Virus record (IMG/VR): IMGVR_UViG_3300021256_000087
Location: 19,477-83,476 of that record
Source of the DNA: a virus
Taxonomy: Duplodnaviria; Caudoviricetes
DNA length: 64,000 nt
Reading direction: 5' to 3' (one strand)
The notes beneath the pieces are model-generated. The model saw nothing but the letters and a program-made list of their open reading frames with translations, was not told where the DNA came from and searched no databases. Position 1 is the first letter of the stretch; each line of letters begins with the position of its first letter. A program made the position numbers and the translations under genes. Below are positions 3,345 to 59,900 of this stretch, in pieces.

Positions 3345-5504
3345 TTAATCACCTCCTATCGCTTGTAAGAAATCATCATGAGTACTATTAAGATGTAGCC
3401 GATATCCATAAGGTTCTGCTTTAGTATATATGTGTGAAAATTTCCATCCTTGCTCTTCAACGCTGATAGCATTTGTATAAATATCTATGATACATCCCTC
3501 ATTCGCACCTCCATAAAACATGGTATTATCATATCCAATGGGATTGTATAATGTATTAGGAATATAAGCTATTTTATTGACGCTAGTGCTTGAATATTCG
3601 CTTATTAACATACAGTTTGTTATATCGTCTCTCGATCTAGGTATAACCCATCCGTCGAAGTCAACTGATCCCGCGAATCCAGATATTCCATATATATAAG
3701 TCACATTGGATAAATCCCAATTTCTTATATCAAGATTCCCGTTTAAAGAACTAGCGATGCCATTTATTCTAGTAAGATTATCAGTATCCAAATTACTAAG
3801 GTTAAAATTTCCTGTGCAATTTTGCAATAAATACGAAATACTTTGGAGTTGACCAACGTTCCAATTACTTAAATCATAAGACCCATATGTGCTATAAAAT
3901 AAATATTCCATTTCTTGAACATCTGATACATCGATTTTGTCTAAGTTATATAAGACCGGAGAATGGCCACTGTATCCATAACAAAAATAACTCATTTTGT
4001 TCGAAAATTTTATTCCCGTATTGGGGAAATATATCGCTCCAAGAGAACATCCGTATCCCATGAATCCATAAGAATATGTACAGACACCATCAACAACCAA
4101 TCCTCTCATATCTAAATACGTATCGTTCCAATCGGATCCATAATATGTACAATATATAAAATTGTTTAATCTGCCAGAATTTCCCATATGCAACACTGAA
4201 TTCTCAAACGTTATCTGAACAGGATAAGAACCAGATATAAAATTAGAAAAATCGCTAGCGTAAATCGTACTGTTTTTAATTAGATATGATGTCGTGCCAA
4301 GATCAGAAGCTTGAGGGGATATAAAATATCCTAAGCGATTTACTGCTGTGGGAAATGTTAACTCCAAAATATGATTAATTGCTTTATCATAATATGTCAA
4401 TCCAAATTGGCTGTAACTCGTAATATTTGGAGATAAAGAAGTTTTTAAATGCATTTCAGGAGTTTGGCATCCATAAAAGGGGTAATGACTATATGAAGTT
4501 TCTCCTGAGAAATCTAATGTAGAAAAATCAGTTTCTCCTAAAACAGTATTATAAAACATGTTATCTCCGTTCGAGATAATAACATCTTCAAAACAAGACA
4601 AATCCAATCCACTATCCGGCATTTTTATATATGCAAACATATAAGAAGTATCTAAGCCCGATGATTCCATTTTCATATTATCAAAGACAAAATTAGGTTC
4701 AATATCGTTATTCATCCATTGATAAAACATATACGATGCATTTACAATAGATGGAAATACGCAATCGGATAAATCAATTGTTACTTGCACCGATTCATTT
4801 GAAAGGGGGCCCGCCGAATTATTGAACATACCATACGCATTTTGCAGCAATGTAAAAGATACTCCTGATAAATCTATGGTAGGAATACTGCTTGAATAAA
4901 ACATTTGTGCCGCATTTACAACATTCGAAAAATCTAATGTATTTAATCCTGTGACAATAGGAATGCGAGCAGAATTAAACATATTACTTACATCTGTGAT
5001 AGTTGAAATATCAAACCCAGTTAAATCTAACGATGGGAGAGAAGCATTGTAAAACATGCCCGCAAGGCTTGTTAAATTTGACACGTCCAATGTAGCCAAT
5101 CTAAGACCTTGGACTATATTCGCCCCATTAAACATATTTGCCGGAAGACTATAGAATTGGGCTCCTGTAAAATCAACCGAGTTAAATGTTCCGCTCAATA
5201 AATTTATCGCTGTAGTTTGAGCACCAATAACTAATCCATCAAGAGACAAATCTCCTCCGGTAACATTTTGGAACATATAATTCATATTAGTTACAGATTC
5301 ACTATTTATTTCACTTAGATCAAAATCATAGGCCTTAGAATAACTAAATAAATAACTCCAGTCTTCGGCGTTATCCATCGTGGAGAAATCTGTATTTTTT
5401 ATAAATTCTTCTTCCCACCTATCACCTCTTTCTCCTATTTCAAGGCCATATTGTGGAATAAGACTTTTTCTTTCAATAGGAGGGCGTATATAAATAACTC
5501 CCAT
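3345..5504 (-). CDS. BspA/DUF285-type repeat protein (719 aa), putative virion adhesin or receptor-binding protein
   Basis: Repeats such as LDVSNLTSLAGMFYNA, FDISTITDVSNMFNSA, IDVSDVQEMEYLFY, WDLSNVT; lies at the distal end of the tail module. Confidence 0.75.
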   Translation of the reverse strand: MGVIYIRPPIERKSLIPQYGLEIGERGDRWEEEFIKNTDFSTMDNAEDWSYLFSYSKAYDFDLSEINSESVTNMNYMFQNVTGGDLSLDGLVIGAQTTAINLLSGTFNSVDFTGAQFYSLPANMFNGANIVQGLRLATLDVSNLTSLAGMFYNASLPSLDLTGFDISTITDVSNMFNSARIPIVTGLNTLDFSNVVNAAQMFYSSSIPTIDLSGVSFTLLQNAYGMFNNSAGPLSNESVQVTIDLSDCVFPSIVNASYMFYQWMNNDIEPNFVFDNMKMESSGLDTSYMFAYIKMPDSGLDLSCFEDVIISNGDNMFYNTVLGETDFSTLDFSGETSYSHYPFYGCQTPEMHLKTSLSPNITSYSQFGLTYYDKAINHILELTFPTAVNRLGYFISPQASDLGTTSYLIKNSTIYASDFSNFISGSYPVQITFENSVLHMGNSGRLNNFIYCTYYGSDWNDTYLDMRGLVVDGVCTYSYGFMGYGCSLGAIYFPNTGIKFSNKMSYFCYGYSGHSPVLYNLDKIDVSDVQEMEYLFYSTYGSYDLSNWNVGQLQSISYLLQNCTGNFNLSNLDTDNLTRINGIASSLNGNLDIRNWDLSNVTYIYGISGFAGSVDFDGWVIPRSRDDITNCMLISEYSSTSVNKIAYIPNTLYNPIGYDNTMFYGGANEGCIIDIYTNAISVEEQGWKFSHIYTKAEPYGYRLHLNSTHDDFLQAIGGD

Positions 5505-17400: not shown

Positions 17401-20400
17401 GTCTTTTCAGGATCCTGAAGGATTTCATTACCGGCAGTAATAAGAGCGATAGATTCATTAAATGAAGTATTAGATGCCGCAAGTACCGAAGCGGAACGCT
17501 GCATTGCATCTCCAATATCAGTAGCGGAGAGAGCAAAGTGGTTACCTATTTCGTTATACTTATCTACGATTGACATTGCGTCATCAGCCGTAATATTGAA
17601 CGCTTTCATGGCGGTGATCATCATATCGGTAGCACCCTTGATATCAACACCGTCTCCAACATTTACAAATACACGTGCGTCCTTTGCTAACTCTGTAGCC
17701 TCTTTAATAGAGTATCCTAAGCGGCTCCAGTCTGCAGCCGACTGTATTAAATCAGCATTTGTTGAAGCAACATCGACAGCTGTTGAACGAATTGTATCTC
17801 TAAATTCTGAGTATTCTTTCTCAGTAGCATCAGTAACTTTACGAAGTTCGACCATTGCGGTGTCGAGCTCTTTTATGGTATTAACACCGGTACGAACATA
17901 ACGAATAATATCGTACAGTGAAAAATATCTAGCAATTTGAGCAGTAAACTGTGCCTTTAAACTCTTACCAATTCTAGTAAAAGCATCTACACCATATACG
18001 CCTAATTGCTTGTATTTTGAGCCAAGATCCATAACCTCGGCTTTTATATTATCATATCTTTCTCTATTAATACCTTCAACAACTTCATCGGCCTTTTTGC
18101 CTTCTACTCTTAATAATTGTAATTCATTTACTAAATTATAAATTCTACTTCTATCGTCTGCTGAAACACCTCGTCCTCGTGTGTTGTTTTGTAGTTCGAT
18201 AGCATCATTTAATAATTTAGAAACTTGGGAAGCTTTAACCGTAACATTTTGATCACTCTGTGCTTCTATGAATCTCTTTCTGTAATCTTCAAGACTTCTA
18301 TAAGCTTTTCTGATGATCGCCTCAGCACCTTCTCCGGCATTTTCTATATTTAATAATTGTCTTATTAATTCTTTAGCTTGAGCCGATTCTTCGTCAACCG
18401 TATTCTCAAATGCTTTTGTATATCCAAATCCTTGTTGCCTTTTTCGAACCATTGAGTTCGAAATATCTTTTTGGATCTTTCCGATTTGTCTGGCAAGATT
18501 AGCCCCGACCTCTTGATATTCGCTGTTAGATCCTAATATGCTTTCAACAAATTCACTACCAACATCTTTGCCACGAGCATATTCTCTAATAGCATTATAT
18601 GCCACATTTAATTTTGACGTAAGATTATCAATATATCCTTCATCAGCATCGGTATCAAATTTAGCTTCAGCAATAAGTTTACGAAGATTATACGTTCTTT
18701 GATATTGCGTATTTATCTCTTTAATGTTTTCAATAGTAGAAGAAAGTTCATCACCTTCTTGTACTAATTTAGCATAATCTTCGGCGCTTCTAATATCACC
18801 GGCTTTAAAATCCTGCAACCTTCCAATATGTTCATTCATTCGGACGTTTATAGAATTGATAGTCCCCAAAACGTCATCTCCGATACTATCGCGTATTGCA
18901 GCATTCATAAGAGACCGGAGTTCTTCGATGCGTCTATCAATCACGCCAGTGTCTACAATTTTGACACGGCTACTTGCATTAGTAGATTGCTTGACAAGAT
19001 CTTTAGCATTATCTATGTATTGCTGTCCATCTGCTAATGCCTCTTCTACTATAGAAGTATCAGATTCGCCAAATAATACATTTTCTAATCGCTCGACAAT
19101 ACGATCCCTCGCTTCGATAATATTGCGTGCGTTGCCCATAAACTCTTCGGAATATATTATGCCTTTATCAGTGTTGTTTTTGATATTATCAACAAGTTTA
19201 TCTCCATTTTCCTCTATATCTTTTAATATTTTTTCAGCAACAACACGATTGGCTTCTGCGGTAATTTTGTCCAGTTCTATATTTTTCTCTTCATCGGTCG
19301 TTAATCTTGAACCTTCAACATAGGTGCTGAACAGCTTATTAAAACTATCTTTCTGTTTTGAAATACCACGATTATCTCCGGAAAGTCTCTTAGTTTGAAT
19401 CTTTGCTTGTAATTCTACAAGGTTATTGTACGCTGTAAGTTTACCGGCATCTAAACTATTTTTGGCAACTAGCTTTGAATACCTATCATTAAACCTACGC
19501 CACTCTTTAAGATCCGCTCTGTTTGTTGGATTATCATAATTAATTAAATCTTGTTTTAATTTCTTTAAACCCTCGATATCTCGATTTTCTCCGGATCTTA
19601 TAATAATCCTATCAATTTTATTTAAGAACTCAACTACCTGATCGTGAGTGATAGCTTTCCGTTCCTCAGCCCCTTCACTATTTTTCGCATCAGCATTAAT
19701 ACTATCCGCCTGAACGTTCACGACATTTGTCTTTAATACTTCTGTATGATTAGTATCAACTATTGTGACATGAGGAGAACTAATTACTATTCCTTCCTCT
19801 GTGCCAACAATTTTAGGTTCAGTCTTAGGTTCATTGGTATCGGATTTCTTTATTGATTTTCTTTCTTTAGGAGGTTCTTTCGGAGGTTCCTGAGACGTTT
19901 TAGGCTTTTGCTCAGACTCGGCTTTATTCTTAAATTTATTATCAGTATATTCTTTACCAAAAGTCCTTCTTATTGCAAGTTTGAATTCATCAATGGCTCT
20001 CGCCGCCGTACTAACTTTAGGAACTATACTATTCCACAAATCCAATTCTTGGGCGTTACTTATCTTTAATGAATCGAATTGTTTCTCTGTCATTAAACCG
20101 GAATCAATAGCTTTTTTACGAGCAATAGGAAGCTGAGACTCCAGATATAAGGACTCTATTGCAGAGTCAAAATTCGTCTTTAATTTATCTAAATTTTTCT
20201 GAGCAGCGTTATAATCATCTTCTTCTGCTTTGAATGGATTATGTATCGATTTCATAACATCAGTAAAGATGGTGATTGCCTCACGTATATCAGTCAATAA
20301 AGATACTTCCTTGGCGTCTCCCTTAGGATCAGGTTCCCCTTCTTTTGCCTTCGCTATATTTTTAGCTAATGCGTTATAAGAGATCCATTCAGAAAGTTTT

Positions 20401-40542: not shown

Positions 40543-41597
40543 TTAAATTAAAGAGGTACCACCGTTACATCCACATCCGTTACCGCATGTGAATATAGGG
40601 GTTCTGCCATATACCGGAGTGCTGGGCACGGGGCAACTAGAAAGTCTATTATAGAGTTGATCAACCTCATCGCTGAATCCCTGCTGAATGAAAGCATTCT
40701 GTGCAGTCTGAGATTCGCGGAGAGCAGCCATATTGAGCTGACTTCTTAAGTTGTCGTTCTCCCTCTTGTAGCCATCCAGCTCGAGCTGGCAAAGTTTATC
40801 GAGGATAGACTGAGTATTTGCAGCATTAGCAGATCTGGTAGCACAAGCTTCAGTTGCGATGGTATACTTTACATCGGCAGTAGCTGCTCTATTATCGCAG
40901 CAACACTGAGCAAGCTGTGACTGGATCGCATTCAGCCCCTGAGTAGAAGCGGTCTGAGCTGCAAAACTTCTCTCCATATCAGCAATCTGATTGGAGAAGA
41001 GTTGAGTAGAGATGTCGCCAATACCATCTCTTACAGAGGTGATATTGTCATTTATCATAGCGTCTCTATAGGTACCATTTGTATTCGCATTAATTCCTGA
41101 CTGTCCATTAAGGATCCAAGGGAAGTCGTTGCCTCCACCGAATCCACCATTTCCCCATCCGTTACCCATGATAGCGAAGAGGAAGAGTATAACCCCAATA
41201 TGTTATCGCGCAGACTTTTTATTCCGCGCTTCTTGCGCTTTTATTCGCACAAGTTCAGCATATCTTTTCAACTATTTAATGCATATAATATAAATGTTTG
41301 GACGCGTTTTATTCTTTTCTGTTCGGCTTCAATCAACTATGTTTAAATAGTTGTCGCAGCCTCGTGGGCACATTGTATTCTGTTTCCAGTTTCAGTGCCT
41401 ATGCGTTGCGCATGACTGTACTTTTACATACAGCCTTCTGCTCGGATTTGCGTTTCAGCATTCCCGCTTAATTCTGCGATTTAAAGTTGGCAAGTTTTTG
41501 TTCACCAACCGTCTCCGCCAAATCCTGAATTTCCGTAGCCTCCGCCGTACGCGGGAGCAACAGGCATATACATGCCGTTTGAATCTGTAAGTGCCAT
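40543..41597 (-). CDS. Gly-rich, Cys-containing membrane-associated protein (~248 aa) split by a group I intron; exons 41597-41504 and 41195-40543
   Basis: AAAGGAG RBS and ATG at 41597; splicing restores MALTDSNGMYMPVAPAYGGGYGNSGFGGDGW-WVILFLFAIMGNGW... in frame with track ORF 40543-41169. Confidence 0.85.
41196..41503 (-). mobile_element. group I intron, ORF-less (308 nt)
   Basis: Exon ends in U, intron ends in G; P1 GUUGGU/GCCAAC with terminal U.G; P10 GGGUU/AACUU; P3 UCGCAG/CUGCGA; P/Q-like AAUUAAGCGGGAA and AAUCCGAGCAG; P7 GCAUA/UAUGC; 11-bp P8; P9 hairpins. Confidence 0.9.
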
Positions 41598-41668
41598 AAT
41601 GATTCTCCTTTCAACAATAAGGTTTACAGTTATATATCAAAATCACTTATGCGCAATCGTGATTGATA

Positions 41669-43072: not shown

Positions 43073-45250
43073 TTATGTGTTCGCATTTTTATTAAAATTA
43101 AATATTCTAACTTTTCCAGTAGGATTATGCGACTCTAAATCCATATCATTTACAGTTAATCTTATCGCAGTAGGAGAAGCTGAGACATCATGATTATAGT
43201 CATCTTTATATTGATCTTCTGCTCCAATAGCTCCAATATAACTATCTCCGTTATACATTAAACATCCCTTATAGTTATATGCCGCTTCTCCGATACAAGT
43301 CGTAGCAATTGTATGCATAACAGGAGCTTCAATAAGATTAGAAAACCACGTATGAGAAGTAGGATCTTCGGTTATTAGTCCGGTATTAGTATCTAATACT
43401 CCGGCAGTCCACGACGTAACATTGCTAGTAAGGTCTGTTCCACCTGATAAAATAGTAAGGGTAGAATATACTTTAGCAGGATCATATAAATGTATATTTA
43501 TAGAATAAGTATCAGGAGGTGTTATTATAACGTCTCCGTTATAAGGGGTTCTCCCTTTATATCCCAGACTGTTGCCAGATGCATCATACATAAATACATC
43601 TACTTCTTGTAAGCTACTTTCAGAATTAAATTCTGGTAAATGTATAGCAGATCCAACAGAATGCAGAGCAGATACTGAACCGCCCGGCATTTCTGACCAA
43701 CCTCCATTATCAATCAACTCCTCAACTTTGGTTGAATATTCGTCTTGAGACACATCTACGGTGGCTGCACATATAGCAGTCTGAGATCCACATCTAATGT
43801 TTATATTGGCTGTCCCATTTGTTATTGGAGTTACCACCCCGTAATCACTAATTTGAATAATAGAGTTATTACTTGAACTATAAAAAACTCTATCGGTAGT
43901 ATCGGCTGGAGTTAGTGTCATAGATAAAGAGAATGGCTCTAAATCACTAATTGTAAGTGTTGCGGGTATGTCAATAGATGTACATGCAACCCGCTCTTTG
44001 AGTTGTGAAAATTTCTCATCTACATATGTTTGTCTATTATAAATATAATCTTCTATTTGCCATACGTTATTGCCAGTAGCGTTGGGTATATCAGGATAAA
44101 TGACGACATCTCTGTCATATAATTCAAGACCAATCAAATCATTAAATTCCTCAGATTTAATGACTAAATTTTCCATAGTCATTATTGTTTGTCTTAATGC
44201 TTCATATCTCGCCTTTATCCTAAGCGGGAATAAATCCCACACTCTCTCAAAAAGATGATTATATTGCTCTTCATAGTCCTGAGGACAAGCATAATTATAT
44301 GGAACGATATATCTTCCAGAATAAAAATTTCCGTAAGTGCTATCTAAATCATATGGCGACAAATACCATTTAGTGCCATCATATGTCAACATTATCATAT
44401 TCTTTCCAAGATTATCTAATGCATTGAAAAAATATGCGAAGATATAATAATCAATAATATTATCCACATCGAAGTAATTATTAATGTTATTAATAAAATC
44501 AGAATCGGAAGCGTTAATAACAAATCCAATTGCGTTATTAACTGATGTAACTATAGCGGGAGTATTGGTACCAGCTTCGACACTCCACTCTTCTCCGTCT
44601 ACTCCCGTCCAAAGTGATTTAAAATTACATGCAGTAGCAACGGTTTGGCTATGAGAATTTACTTCAGCACAAAGAGCCACATGATTTGGATTGTCGGGAT
44701 CCATGTTGAACATCCAAGAATCCTTGGGAATGTTCCATGTATATATTCCTTCATAATGTCCGTTTGCATATAATTTAAATGGATATCCATCTACGGCCCC
44801 ATGATTATAGGCAGCTTTCATTTCCTCAGGGAGACTATCATAATCGGATCTACTTTCGACGATTTGTTTCCAAATTCGACCTGATATAATATTACGCATA
44901 TGAGAGTGATCAATATAGTTTGCCTTCAAGCAGTATTTTGAATGCTCTCCCCAGCCTTTCTTAAACTCGTGATTATATTCCTGAGTTCTTTCTGAATCTG
45001 AATATAATTTAATGGTATAATTTTTTTTCGGATATCCCATGGATGAAGTACCTTGACATTTTATTTTTCCATACAACTTCGTCTTAATACCATCCTGTTC
45101 ATATTCACATTCACAGTTGACATTGTCCTTAGTCGTCGGCATTGCTGCTGCAGTAACGAACAATCTCGGTAATGATTGAGGCCCACTAGGAGGGATTGGA
45201 CTACCAGAATTTTTACCATAGGCTACGCCTTTTTTATAAATAACTCCCAT
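43073..45250 (-). CDS. CotH-family kinase domain protein with Ig-like (Big_2) domain
   Basis: KCQGTSSMGYPKKNY, CLKANYID, LYANGHYEGIY, DNLGKNM, KWYLSPYDLDSTYG; followed by TLTPADTTDRVFYSSSNNSIIQISDYGVVT. Confidence 0.8.
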   Translation of the reverse strand: MGVIYKKGVAYGKNSGSPIPPSGPQSLPRLFVTAAAMPTTKDNVNCECEYEQDGIKTKLYGKIKCQGTSSMGYPKKNYTIKLYSDSERTQEYNHEFKKGWGEHSKYCLKANYIDHSHMRNIISGRIWKQIVESRSDYDSLPEEMKAAYNHGAVDGYPFKLYANGHYEGIYTWNIPKDSWMFNMDPDNPNHVALCAEVNSHSQTVATACNFKSLWTGVDGEEWSVEAGTNTPAIVTSVNNAIGFVINASDSDFINNINNYFDVDNIIDYYIFAYFFNALDNLGKNMIMLTYDGTKWYLSPYDLDSTYGNFYSGRYIVPYNYACPQDYEEQYNHLFERVWDLFPLRIKARYEALRQTIMTMENLVIKSEEFNDLIGLELYDRDVVIYPDIPNATGNNVWQIEDYIYNRQTYVDEKFSQLKERVACTSIDIPATLTISDLEPFSLSMTLTPADTTDRVFYSSSNNSIIQISDYGVVTPITNGTANINIRCGSQTAICAATVDVSQDEYSTKVEELIDNGGWSEMPGGSVSALHSVGSAIHLPEFNSESSLQEVDVFMYDASGNSLGYKGRTPYNGDVIITPPDTYSINIHLYDPAKVYSTLTILSGGTDLTSNVTSWTAGVLDTNTGLITEDPTSHTWFSNLIEAPVMHTIATTCIGEAAYNYKGCLMYNGDSYIGAIGAEDQYKDDYNHDVSASPTAIRLTVNDMDLESHNPTGKVRIFNFNKNANT

Positions 45251-56909: not shown

Positions 56910-59900
56910 TCATTTTTGCAAATTTTTGCTAAAGCATTTAAGTAGTGCCTCAGGATTAACCTCGTATAAAACCCTTAATAAGATTGCTCTATTCTTATTT
57001 AGCTTACTTTTTAAACCGGCGGTCTGTTGCTCGAGCTGTGGAGTCATCCTAAAAGCTCTGTCCAGCAGCCAGCTAAACAAACCAATATATCTATTTGGTA
57101 ATGCTATTCGTCTAATGTCTTCCACAAGTTGTTCAAAATCTTCTCTGAGTAAGAGATAAGATTCCATATCGCTTATGCAATCATCTTTGTCTATTCTGCT
57201 TTCAAGTAATTCTAGTTGATATTTTTGTATAAGATCTTCAACATTACGTGAAGCCTTCTTTGTCATGTCCAGCGGAAACTTCTGAAAGAAATCCGTTGTC
57301 GGTATAGTTTCCGTTTCGGGTTTATATGATTCAAACTCCATCTTGTACAGCCTACACATAGGTGAATCGAGTTTGAAGTTTATTCTATTTGTTGGGAATC
57401 CTTTTCGGATTTGTTGCCAGAATGGCGGATATTTATTGTCCTTAATGCCGATATCGGCACGGATACGTTTTATTTCATTTGTTATATCTATTGAAAAGGT
57501 ACGCTTACTACTATCTATGGCTGCTTGTGCAAGCACCGCTAAGATACAAGCGTAATCTTTATATTTCTGATCTGGATAATTATATGTATATGTTAAACAA
57601 ACTTGTGCCAGATTGCTGGACTCTCCTATATTTCTTTGGCTCGCACTTAAATTGTTATCCATCAACGCAAATGAAGCCATGTCGGAATCGTATGATTTTT
57701 TACTCTTAGGTATATTATTAACTATCGTTGGATAGACTTGATAACAATACTTTGCGTGCTCCACAATTGAAGGAGCGTTGGTTGTGTATATTGAATCAGA
57801 GTCCTGATCTGCTATGTGTTATCGTATTGGTTCTTTATCCAATACCTCTCTAAGTTTCCTTAGACGCTCAGACTATCTCATCACCTTCGGCATTGTCCGG
57901 TCAGGTGTTCGGCGCTCGTGGGTGGATTATTGTTGCCTACTCACCACCTAGTCGTTAAACGTTCCTGTAGTTATTGTTGGCATTACAGACTTCGTAATTG
58001 ATTAGCATATATATGATTAAATATTTTTCCAAGTCTTTCTTTTAACAATATAATCAATAGTTGACCAATGACTATGATAATCATCATTTGGATAAAGTAT
58101 TCTGCAAATATCTATAACTCTCAACCCGTCAGAATACATTTTTCTTATTTCTAAAACTTGTTCTTCTGTAAGAGTACTACGTCCGTTATTAGTTCCAGTA
58201 TGTCCTTTACAAATGGTTTCATAATTATTATCAACACTATATTGAATATTTTCTTTATGAGTAACCCATTCAAGATTATCGGCATTGTTATTATGTCTAT
58301 TAAAATCTTTATGGTTTACTTCAGCTTCTTCAAAATAACCATCAACCCAAGCATGTGCTACATATAAATGAACTGGAACATCTCCGCCACTTACCAAATA
58401 GCCGTCTACATTATCTCTTGTTTTACTTTCTTGGTTTCTGTTATTTTTTATATCTCCATCTTTTGAAACCCACTTGCTACGATTTCTTACAGTCACATAT
58501 CTATATATCTTACCATCAATTTCTTTTTCTTCCATAAACGTCCTTTCCGAAATTGACTTGGAAATTAATCATATACTTAGCTTTCCGATTTTCACCGAAT
58601 GTTTATTACGCACATTTCTGTACGCTGGCCCAGTTTGTTAAGCCATTATTTCTGTCACAGAAACTTGTACCTTGTAGATTCACTGCTATACACAACTTAC
58701 CGAATCTAAAATACTTTTTAATCAACGGATGTAATCTGTTATGCAAATATCCCAAATTGTTTTGGGAATTAAAAGGATTTCTAAATTCTGCCAGATACTC
58801 TCCATCCTCAAATCTTTCTGAATAACATTGGATTGCATCTTCCTCTACGTCAAAGGTGCAATCTTTACTCACATCTTCTCCGACAGAGTGCAAGAGCATT
58901 GCGTATGGACTTCCACATATAACAAGATTATCGGCGTTTTGTAAAAGTTTACCGGTCTTTATACTCATCGTATAGTCGTAAATGATTTTCTTCTTACGCT
59001 CTCGGAAATATTCGCTCTGTTCAAATGTATGATCCTGAGTCCATATTGCCAGCAACGCTTCATAATCATTCGAAAAGTTTGCATTTCTCTTTAAGAAATC
59101 CAAATACGTATTTAAATCGGTCTTAAGTGCCTTTACATAATCTCTGGTGGGAGCGGATACCTGATCTATGGTTTCATTGTTTAATGAGTTGACCATTTGG
59201 TAAGACATCCTCTGATAATCGCCGTACTTGCTTGGATGCGCTGTCTTAACTATTCCAAACATTGATCCGTTCTCTCGAACCTTCTCACACCATTGTTCAT
59301 AGGTCACATTATATTTAACCCATTTCACGGCATTATTAGTGGTAATTACTTTAACGTTCTTAGCAAGATGTTTATTACCCCACATATCCGTCAGATAAGC
59401 CGTATCATATTTCTGACCAAAATAGTCCTTGAGAAAACCTTGTATATCTGTAGCGAATGCTGCCGCTTTTGTGAAATGATGGCGCAAGAGGAGATACCCG
59501 TTTGTCCACTCGGGACATATCGACAAATCGATTAATGCCTGTCCATCAAACATGTCACAGCCCAACGTGTAATCTCTACGATACACTGCCTTGCATTGAT
59601 TGTTTTCAACCTCTACACTTACCACATTGGTTTTGAATTCCGACTTTACATCTTTTAGGATTACTATATCTTCGGGATTAATCTCTATCTTGCCGACAAT
59701 GGTTGAAGTCACCAGTGATGTGTATGCCCCAAACTCCGTAATTGGTGCATCGTGCTTTGGGAGCTTGAGGCCCATATAGAGGAAGTCGTGAGCCTTCTTA
59801 TACAAGCTTTGCTTTATAAACATACACGAACCAACCTTAGCCTTGCCAGCGGTACGATACAAATATTTATACTTTACATCACCATTCTTATAATGTATCG

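Follow-up and report, generated by a model that had tools for sequence, protein, structure and literature searches.

In a 64,000-nucleotide (nt) stretch of a Caudoviricetes virus (IMG/VR record IMGVR_UViG_3300021256_000087, positions 19,477 to 83,476; the whole stretch is called the window below), the minus-strand segment 41503-41196 is, with a probability that we put at roughly 0.92, a functional group I intron of the phage IA-like kind, devoid of an open reading frame (ORF) and of helix P2, which interrupts in phase 1 the Trp32 codon of a conserved gene matching phrog_16490. The boundaries, secondary structure and family membership of the segment can be read directly, as can the intact frame that its removal leaves. 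A hidden ORF-less group I intron had been proposed here in a preliminary description, and the proposal is supported by the anatomy of the splice sites, by covariation across a whole intron family, by the match to an independent covariance model, and by intron-less homologues that carry the exact ligated junction.

The interrupted gene is laid out as follows.

41605..41610, minus strand: Shine-Dalgarno sequence AAGGAG, 7 nt 5′ of the exon 1 ATG (read from the sequence)
41504..41597, minus strand: exon 1, 31 codons (MALTD...GGDGW) plus T, the first base of Trp32
41196..41503, minus strand: group I intron, 308 nt, no ORF, no P2
40543..41195, minus strand: exon 2, GG finishing Trp32, then VILFLFAIMGNGW... 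to the stop; 216 codons plus stop

The first part is a 31-codon ORF (41597..41505, MALTDSNGMYMPVAPAYGGGYGNSGFGGDGW) that ends in GDGW and runs into a stop codon, T/GA, spanning the break (the T is base 41504); downstream, an open frame resumes at 41195/41193 (..W VILFLFAIMGNGW..). The preliminary description had seen this stop after GDGW and the resumption 308 nt later, and both coordinates and sequence agree with it. Joining 41597-41504 to 41195-40543 yields a single frame of 747 nt, or 248 codons, the sole stop of which is terminal and the split codon of which, T/GG, is Trp32. The predicted ligated junction is GGAGACGGTTGGT joined to GGGTTATACTCTTCC at the nucleotide level and ..GFGGDGWWVILF.. 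in the peptide. The called ORF comprises only 208 amino acids (aa) at 41169-40543 and begins at the internal ATG at 41169, upstream of which the sequence offers no comparable purine run or Shine-Dalgarno motif; ORF callers thus shorten the protein by 40 aa (208 versus 248), as had also been pointed out.

Homologues place the junction inside a motif that is unbroken elsewhere. The exon 2 translation has at least 8000 relatives, nearly all of the best 120 of which are 245-295 aa long, and a length of 208 aa is restricted to 3 of these 120, namely the window product and two others (P0002 and P0003). Among 12 full-length homologues (about 245-295 aa), 11 continue without a break across the contiguous GDGWW region, reading G(D/C)DGWWVILFLFA(L/I)MGNGW, with GDGWWVILFLFA across the junction; the remaining one reads GDWAWIVLLLLL at this point. 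The two other 208-aa products come from contigs L005 (P0002) and L004 (P0003), in which the 31-aa ORF, the gap and the 208-aa ORF all recur, with an insert 98% identical to the window intron. At the DNA level, intron-less alleles are present in contigs L006 and L007 (..GG(A/C)TGGT-GGGTTAT.., the hyphen marking the junction), and Butyrivibrio virus Ceridwen has an intact homologous gene of 275 aa, which makes Butyrivibrio-like bacteria candidate hosts. The exact ligated junction occurs in eight stretches of the metagenome and virus collections (one contig being in both), and the similarity of these stretches to the window breaks exactly at 41195. A near-identical intron-less allele was also sought, and the nearest ones found have flanks about 70-83% identical to the window; in the phage collection, a megablast search with the region returned no near relative. 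The comparison with intron-less homologues, which the preliminary description had suggested as a check, comes out in favour of an intron, and the host gene is widely conserved, as the description had expected. Its label ‘accessory’ is doubtful, considering this abundance and the proximity of the portal gene.

The intron has the following parts, for which an intron position is obtained by subtracting the window coordinate from 41504; all listed helix pairs were verified as standard pairs.

41486..41496, minus strand: internal guide sequence, pairing with exon 1 (P1) and exon 2 (P10)
41474..41478, minus strand: P3 5′ strand, intron 26-30 CGCAG, pairing with 145-149
41410..41466, minus strand: P4-P5-P6-P6a domain (P4 38-41/58-61; J4/5 AA; P5 44-46/53-55; P6 63-65/92-94; P6a 69-75/84-90)
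41400..41404, minus strand: P7 5′ strand GCAUA, intron 100-104; 3′ partner UAUGC at 242-246
41367..41399, minus strand: P7.1, 105-109/133-137, with inner hairpin P7.1a, 115-117/122-124, and a GAAA loop
41355..41359, minus strand: P3 3′ strand, intron 145-149 CUGCG, with conserved CCACGAG just before it
41269..41353, minus strand: P8, an 11-base-pair (bp) stem, 151-161/225-235, with loop 162-224 (window 41280-41342)
41258..41268, minus strand: J8/7 AAAAGA and P7 3′ strand UAUGC (242-246), where GAAAAGAUAUGC is conserved family-wide
41232..41253, minus strand: P9 hairpin, 251-257/266-272
41208..41229, minus strand: P9.1 hairpin, 275-281/290-296, with conserved loop AUAAAAAG
41196..41207, minus strand: 3′ tail GAUAAC-AUAUU-G, the terminal G308 being the omega-G

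The last six bases of exon 1, GUUGGU, form the 5′ strand of P1 and pair with intron 13-18 (GCCAAC), with a U-1.G13 wobble at the 5′ splice site, and in P10 the exon 2 bases GGGUU pair with intron 8-12 (AACUU), directly 5′ of the guide bases of P1. P7 crosses P3 to form the group I pseudoknot, and the helices from P3 to P9.1 follow one another in canonical order; the preliminary claim that all core helices are visible stands for these and fails for P2. The variant P7 that it described (GCAUA 100-104 with UAUGC 242-246) is present, and the AT-rich P8 loop, estimated there at about 65 nt, measures 63 nt with about 68% A+T (base count by eye) inside a perfect 11-nt inverted repeat. G100-C246 lies where the guanosine-binding pair is expected, and our reading of the sequence is that C99 could bulge with A98-U247 beyond it; P9.0 could form between U306U307 and A249A250. 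What defines subgroup IA, reportedly since Michel and Westhof in 1990, is the presence of additional helices (P7.1 with either P7.2 or P7.1a) between P7 and the 3′ strand of P3. In the window intron, P7.1 with nested P7.1a sits there. On the sense strand, no ORF lies within the 308 nt, the sole overlapping frame, of 49 aa, having its start upstream in exon 1, and no homing endonuclease is encoded in the window intron. The 8-mer AUGCUGAA occurs twice in the intron (window 41454-41461 in P5 and 41254-41261 at the P7 3′ strand and J7/9), probably by chance.

Same-site introns in homologues of the host gene define the splice sites further. Such introns, located after the first base of the codon following G-W, were found in contigs L120 (IMGVR_UViG_3300021400_000079), L129 and L184, all with the P2-less architecture of the window intron, a design common to the sub-lineage of L120, L129, L184 and L182. 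Over intron positions 11-154, the L120 intron shares 83% identity with the window intron, and its guide is likewise GCCAAC. Identity to the query homologue P0005 amounts to 56% for the L120 host protein and to about 23% for the homologues in L129 and L184. In L120, the intron follows ..GDWGW plus T and exon 2 continues as (L)ILLLLIAGGGWGN, and in L129 and L184 it follows ..NNGAW plus T, exon 2 continuing as (W)IIILFLFMFMGYGNNGWGN. P1 covaries between these introns (GUUGGU/GCCAAC in the window versus CAUGGU/GCCAUG in L129 and L184), and so does P10 (GGGUU/AACUU in the window, AAUCU/AGAUU in L120 and GGAU/AUCU in L129). The guide changes along with the exons, and the splice sites are therefore fixed independently of the protein argument. 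The L129 intron has a 167-nt insert in P8. One codon offers a clean natural series of endonuclease-bearing, partly reduced and ORF-less introns, usable for studying intron gain, intron decay and the co-evolution of the guide.

Covariation was assessed separately for the two halves of the intron. For the 5′ half, 66 distinct family sequences were aligned with MAFFT, which is blind to structure; this set had been selected for a 5-bp P3, the other helices playing no part in the selection. Across P3, P4, P5, P6, P6a, P7.1 and P7.1a, the 30 pairs are 94.1% paired and all but two (28 of 30) change on both sides, a level of pairing reached by none of 500 shuffles and falling to 33-43% when partners are slid by 1-3 columns. 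By helix, pairing amounts to 95% for P3, 93% for P4 and P5 together, 98.5% for two pairs of P6, 97% and 87% for P6a, 98.8% for P7.1 (four of its five pairs changed on both sides) and 92.7% for P7.1a. A register of P7.1 shifted by one base was tried and rejected, as it is only 57% paired. For the 3′ half, 30 sequences, none from the phage of the window, gave 93.3% pairing over P9 and P9.1, with 13 of the 14 pairs changed on both sides; P9 is 91% paired, and P9.1 95.7%, with all seven of its pairs changed on both sides. Both halves together thus have 41 of 44 pairs that change on both sides in helices that are 93-94% paired. P7 was compared between sub-families: GACUA/UAGUC in the intron of the RNA polymerase gene of the window (see below) differs from GCAUA/UAUGC (L171, L110, L166) by two compensatory swaps. 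In most members, a helix closing P8 starts 2-3 nt after the 3′ strand of P3 and ends directly before J8/7, also around ORF-bearing inserts of 500-950 nt, its length being 11 bp in L008, 7 bp in L120 and 7 bp in L169.

Two covariance models were built from the family. R1 covers the 5′ half, and its score of 140 bits on the window holds by construction, because the window was in the seed. R2 covers the 3′ half, its seed excluded the window as well as L004 and L005, and it matches window 41194-41294 with 90.3 bits (E-value 3e-18), ending at the predicted 3′ splice site. As R2 was built without the window sequence, this score indicates that the intron signal is more than chance. In the whole 83.5-kb virus record, just two matches were found, the window intron and the RNA polymerase intron.

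How the element would work can be proposed from the established chemistry of group I introns. In the folded pre-mRNA, the exon sequence GUUGGU would pair with the guide GCCAAC to form P1, and free guanosine bound at G100-C246 of P7 would attack after U-1. AACUU beside the guide would hold exon 2 in P10 while G308, aided by P9.0, enters the same pocket, and exon ligation would give the 248-aa protein. The TGA across the 5′ splice site would be expected to halt ribosomes on unspliced RNA.

Several observations weigh against a working intron. Its splicing is a prediction from sequence, and P2 is missing, only 7 nt connecting the guide to P3. P7 is invariant inside the family, and its pairing therefore rests on complementarity and on the sister sub-family; the statistics for P3 are inflated and provide no independent test, because the sequences were chosen by P3 complementarity; and the L004 copy has an A.C mismatch in P7.1a. 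The nested parts of the proposed fold amount to -60 to -64 kcal/mol versus -85.5 kcal/mol for the minimum-energy fold, and a local hairpin at 151-170 competes with the long-range P8. The Rfam model RF00028 matched neither the window at its gathering score nor a 521-nt stretch at E-values up to 10. Finally, R1 returned nothing significant against T4, Twort, SPO1 and SPbeta, leaving the family without a score link to an experimentally proven intron; the sole suggestive match there (E-value 0.94) adjoins the Twort ‘intron encoded nuclease’ gene.

For some of these points, the analysis provides an answer. The local hairpins of the plain minimum-energy fold (91-103 and 151-170) clash with P6, P7 and P8, and this fold was rejected because covariation backs the group I pairings. 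As for P8, its 5′ strand can pair either locally, at 151-170 as in the minimum-energy fold, or at long range; we favour the long-range stem because it retains the continuity of P8 with J8/7 seen in every relative and because ORF-bearing relatives are closed in the same way. The covariance-model check suggested in the preliminary description succeeded with the family model R2 and failed with RF00028. The latter failure reflects the reach of the model and not the RNA: at its gathering score RF00028 also left the RNA polymerase intron without a match, and at E-values up to 1 it found nothing in the loci of AR9, LIS04 and MT835481. Because the missed loci include the AR9 gyrA locus, annotated as a three-piece join, the miss says little against the window intron.

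The absence of both P2 and an endonuclease ORF, the unusually long P8 loop with its competing hairpin and the P7.1a mismatch of the relative L004 would all suit a group I intron that has decayed and no longer splices, leaving the gene effectively broken and able to yield only a 31-aa peptide, perhaps along with a 208-aa product truncated at the N-terminus. We regard such decay as improbable, since every core helix is intact and the family has many other members without P2 or with a long P8. Moreover, the five substitutions in P9 and P9.1 stems among the three 98%-identical copies (three in P9 among these near-identical copies, two in P9.1 of L005) all preserve pairing, as under selection on the RNA; both exon frames are uninterrupted with products that remain 96-97% identical among the three copies, and the internal ATG from which a truncated product would start has no ribosome-binding site.

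Still less probable are two separate genes of 31 and 208 aa, flanking a structured non-coding RNA or a regulatory spacer that is never spliced. ORF callers and the public protein collection do read the locus in this way, with three 208-aa entries and called 31-aa genes; however, the two parts form one continuous protein in almost all homologues, with the junction inside a conserved motif, and the supposed spacer has full group I anatomy, belongs to an intron family and contains a guide complementary to both of its flanks. A mobile insertion other than an intron that disrupts the gene (a miniature transposable element, for instance, or the scar of a recombination) would account for the sporadic distribution (3 of the best 120 homologues are so truncated) but is barely credible for a sequence that aligns lengthwise with introns of other split genes and has no terminal inverted repeats or target duplication at its boundaries, only internal repeats having been found.

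The window intron belongs to a large phage intron family. Low-stringency blastn matched intron positions 11-162 inside the gyrA genes of the Bacillus phages AR9, PBS1 and vB_BsuM-Goe21 and of Yersinia phage phiR1-37, in the major tail protein gene of Staphylococcus phage vB-SscS-F1, in an intein-bearing locus just upstream of the terminase large-subunit gene of Listeria phage LIS04, and in a human gut phage contig. In the AR9 record (KU878088), the gyrA coding sequence is annotated as a join of three pieces, and its two introns score 106-108 bits with R1, both being in the R1 seed. The gyrA introns share with the window intron the core from P3 to P6a, the string GCAACGCAUAG, a P7.1 with a UGAAAC/AAUAUAAU internal loop, CCACGAG before the 3′ strand of P3, GAAAAGAUAUGC, the hairpin loop AUAAAAAG and a 3′ end of the form AUAAC-N4-5-G. 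They differ in having a P2 hairpin, an extra hairpin in the P9 region, a short P8, an ORF near the 5′ end before P2 and a DNA gyrase host, whereas the window intron, in a host gene of unknown function, lacks both P2 and an ORF and has a P8 loop of 63 nt. A two-anchor pattern, GCAACGCATAG-N25-55-CCAMGAG, finds at least 106 stretches in IMG/VR; it replaced the single-anchor pattern GCAACGCATAG-N5-TGA, the matches of which were mostly due to chance.

Within the family, the Listeria phage LIS04 member (L002, about 1514-1660), which lies among intein/Hint fragments just upstream of the terminase large-subunit gene, seemingly has no P8 hairpin, AAAACGUAUGC following within about 15 nt of the 3′ strand of P3. 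Two contigs carry family introns in tandem, L003 (MT835481.1) at 2498-2732 and 3517-4620 and L121 at 3352-3573 and 3725-3941; the former pair is about 1 kb apart and consists of one ORF-less intron and one with a P8 ORF, and the latter is only about 370 nt apart.

A relative in the same window is the intron of the RNA polymerase (YonO-like) gene at about 57812-58640, a member of a sister sub-family whose P7 has the canonical form GACUA/UAGUC. It matches on the minus strand at 57810-58010, between the ORFs 56910-57764 and 58017-58535, with 25.3 bits for R1 (57907-58010) and 53.6 bits for R2. Both introns have the same layout of J8/7 and P9 and end in a hairpin followed by GAUAAC-N5-G; in line with the preliminary description, the 3′ end of the window intron (hairpin-GAUAAC-AUAUU-G) mirrors that of the RNA polymerase intron (hairpin-GAUAAC-ACAUA-G, 57812-57850). 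Classical phage introns of subgroup IA (T4 td, nrdB and nrdD; Twort orf142; SPO1 DNA polymerase; SPbeta bnrdE/F) have a like architecture and chemistry, with P7.1 after P7, and often carry HNH or GIY-YIG genes in peripheral loops. The second P7 pair of the window intron is C-G, as opposed to A-U in these classical introns. IA1 and IA2 introns have been described in prophage structural genes (PMC2504315). The window intron is real, yet as a mobile RNA it is of a well-known and ordinary kind: it changes nothing in the understanding of how such introns work and extends by one site the list of phage genes in which group I introns have settled.

Relatives also bear on the origin of the P8 loop. The P8 of the same-site L120 intron holds a 157-aa ORF with HNH_3 and helix-turn-helix (HTH) domains, and other relatives have ORFs in P8 as well. 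Because the L120 intron occupies the same site, its HNH ORF supports by position the earlier suggestion that the 63-nt loop is an eroded endonuclease site; the suggestion is not supported by the sequence of the loop, in which a search for an endonuclease remnant against the ORFs of relatives detected no similarity. We infer that the window intron descends from a mobile family with homing-endonuclease genes in the P8 loop and that such a gene was probably lost from its P8; with only a 63-nt loop left there, its persistence would now most likely depend on vertical descent or recombination with relatives. An 8-nt direct repeat, AUAGUUGA, lies at intron 164-171 and 229-236 (window 41333-41340 and 41268-41275), 65 nt apart. 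If one copy and the intervening 57 nt (65 nt altogether) were deleted, P8 would be reduced to a minimal hairpin resembling that of short members. The repeat may have been left behind by an insertion or a deletion, or it may be due to chance, an 8-mer repeat in about 300 A+T-rich bases being not in itself improbable. In L120, the HNH_3+HTH ORF (L120:2943-3416) ends in ..WKTVEKIC-stop, its last codons being the 3′ strand of P8, J8/7 and the 3′ strand of P7, and the coding sequence and the catalytic RNA thus overlap at the end of the ORF.

On a broader scale, we tentatively raise a possibility to which we give somewhat less than an even chance, namely that introns with a GCAUA/UAUGC P7 constitute an abundant phage lineage invisible to the sole Rfam group I model, a P2-less branch of which occupies one phrog_16490 codon across homologues with identity down to about 23%. 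If so, ORF-less copies would be missed systematically, and metagenome annotations would contain many ‘short’ or ‘split’ phage genes that are artefacts. The conserved target, Gly-Trp before a hydrophobic segment, would then mark a constrained spot in a very common virion-module protein. As regards detection, a large phage group I family, including ORF-less members without a protein signature, escapes the standard Rfam scan and can be found with R1, R2 or the pattern GCAACGCATAG-N25-55-CCAMGAG. For annotation, the true product of the window gene would be a 248-aa protein with a Gly-rich N-terminus and a hydrophobic segment, instead of the called 31 aa and 208 aa, and at least two other public contigs need to be corrected likewise.

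The host gene lies two genes upstream of the portal gene, within a cassette of unknown proteins. Its family, phrog_16490, is listed in PHROGs as ‘unknown function’, a Pfam search of the host protein gave no match, and an AlphaFold2 model of the protein family was uninformative (pLDDT, the predicted local distance difference test score, 40.8). The hydrophobic segment in the N-terminal part of the protein comprises 11 strongly hydrophobic residues and is a candidate transmembrane segment. Three genes upstream of the intron-bearing gene, in the virion-gene region, the window encodes a 725-aa protein (43073-45250, minus strand) with a full-length CotH kinase domain (Pfam PF08757, E-value 1.9e-30) and an Ig-like domain.

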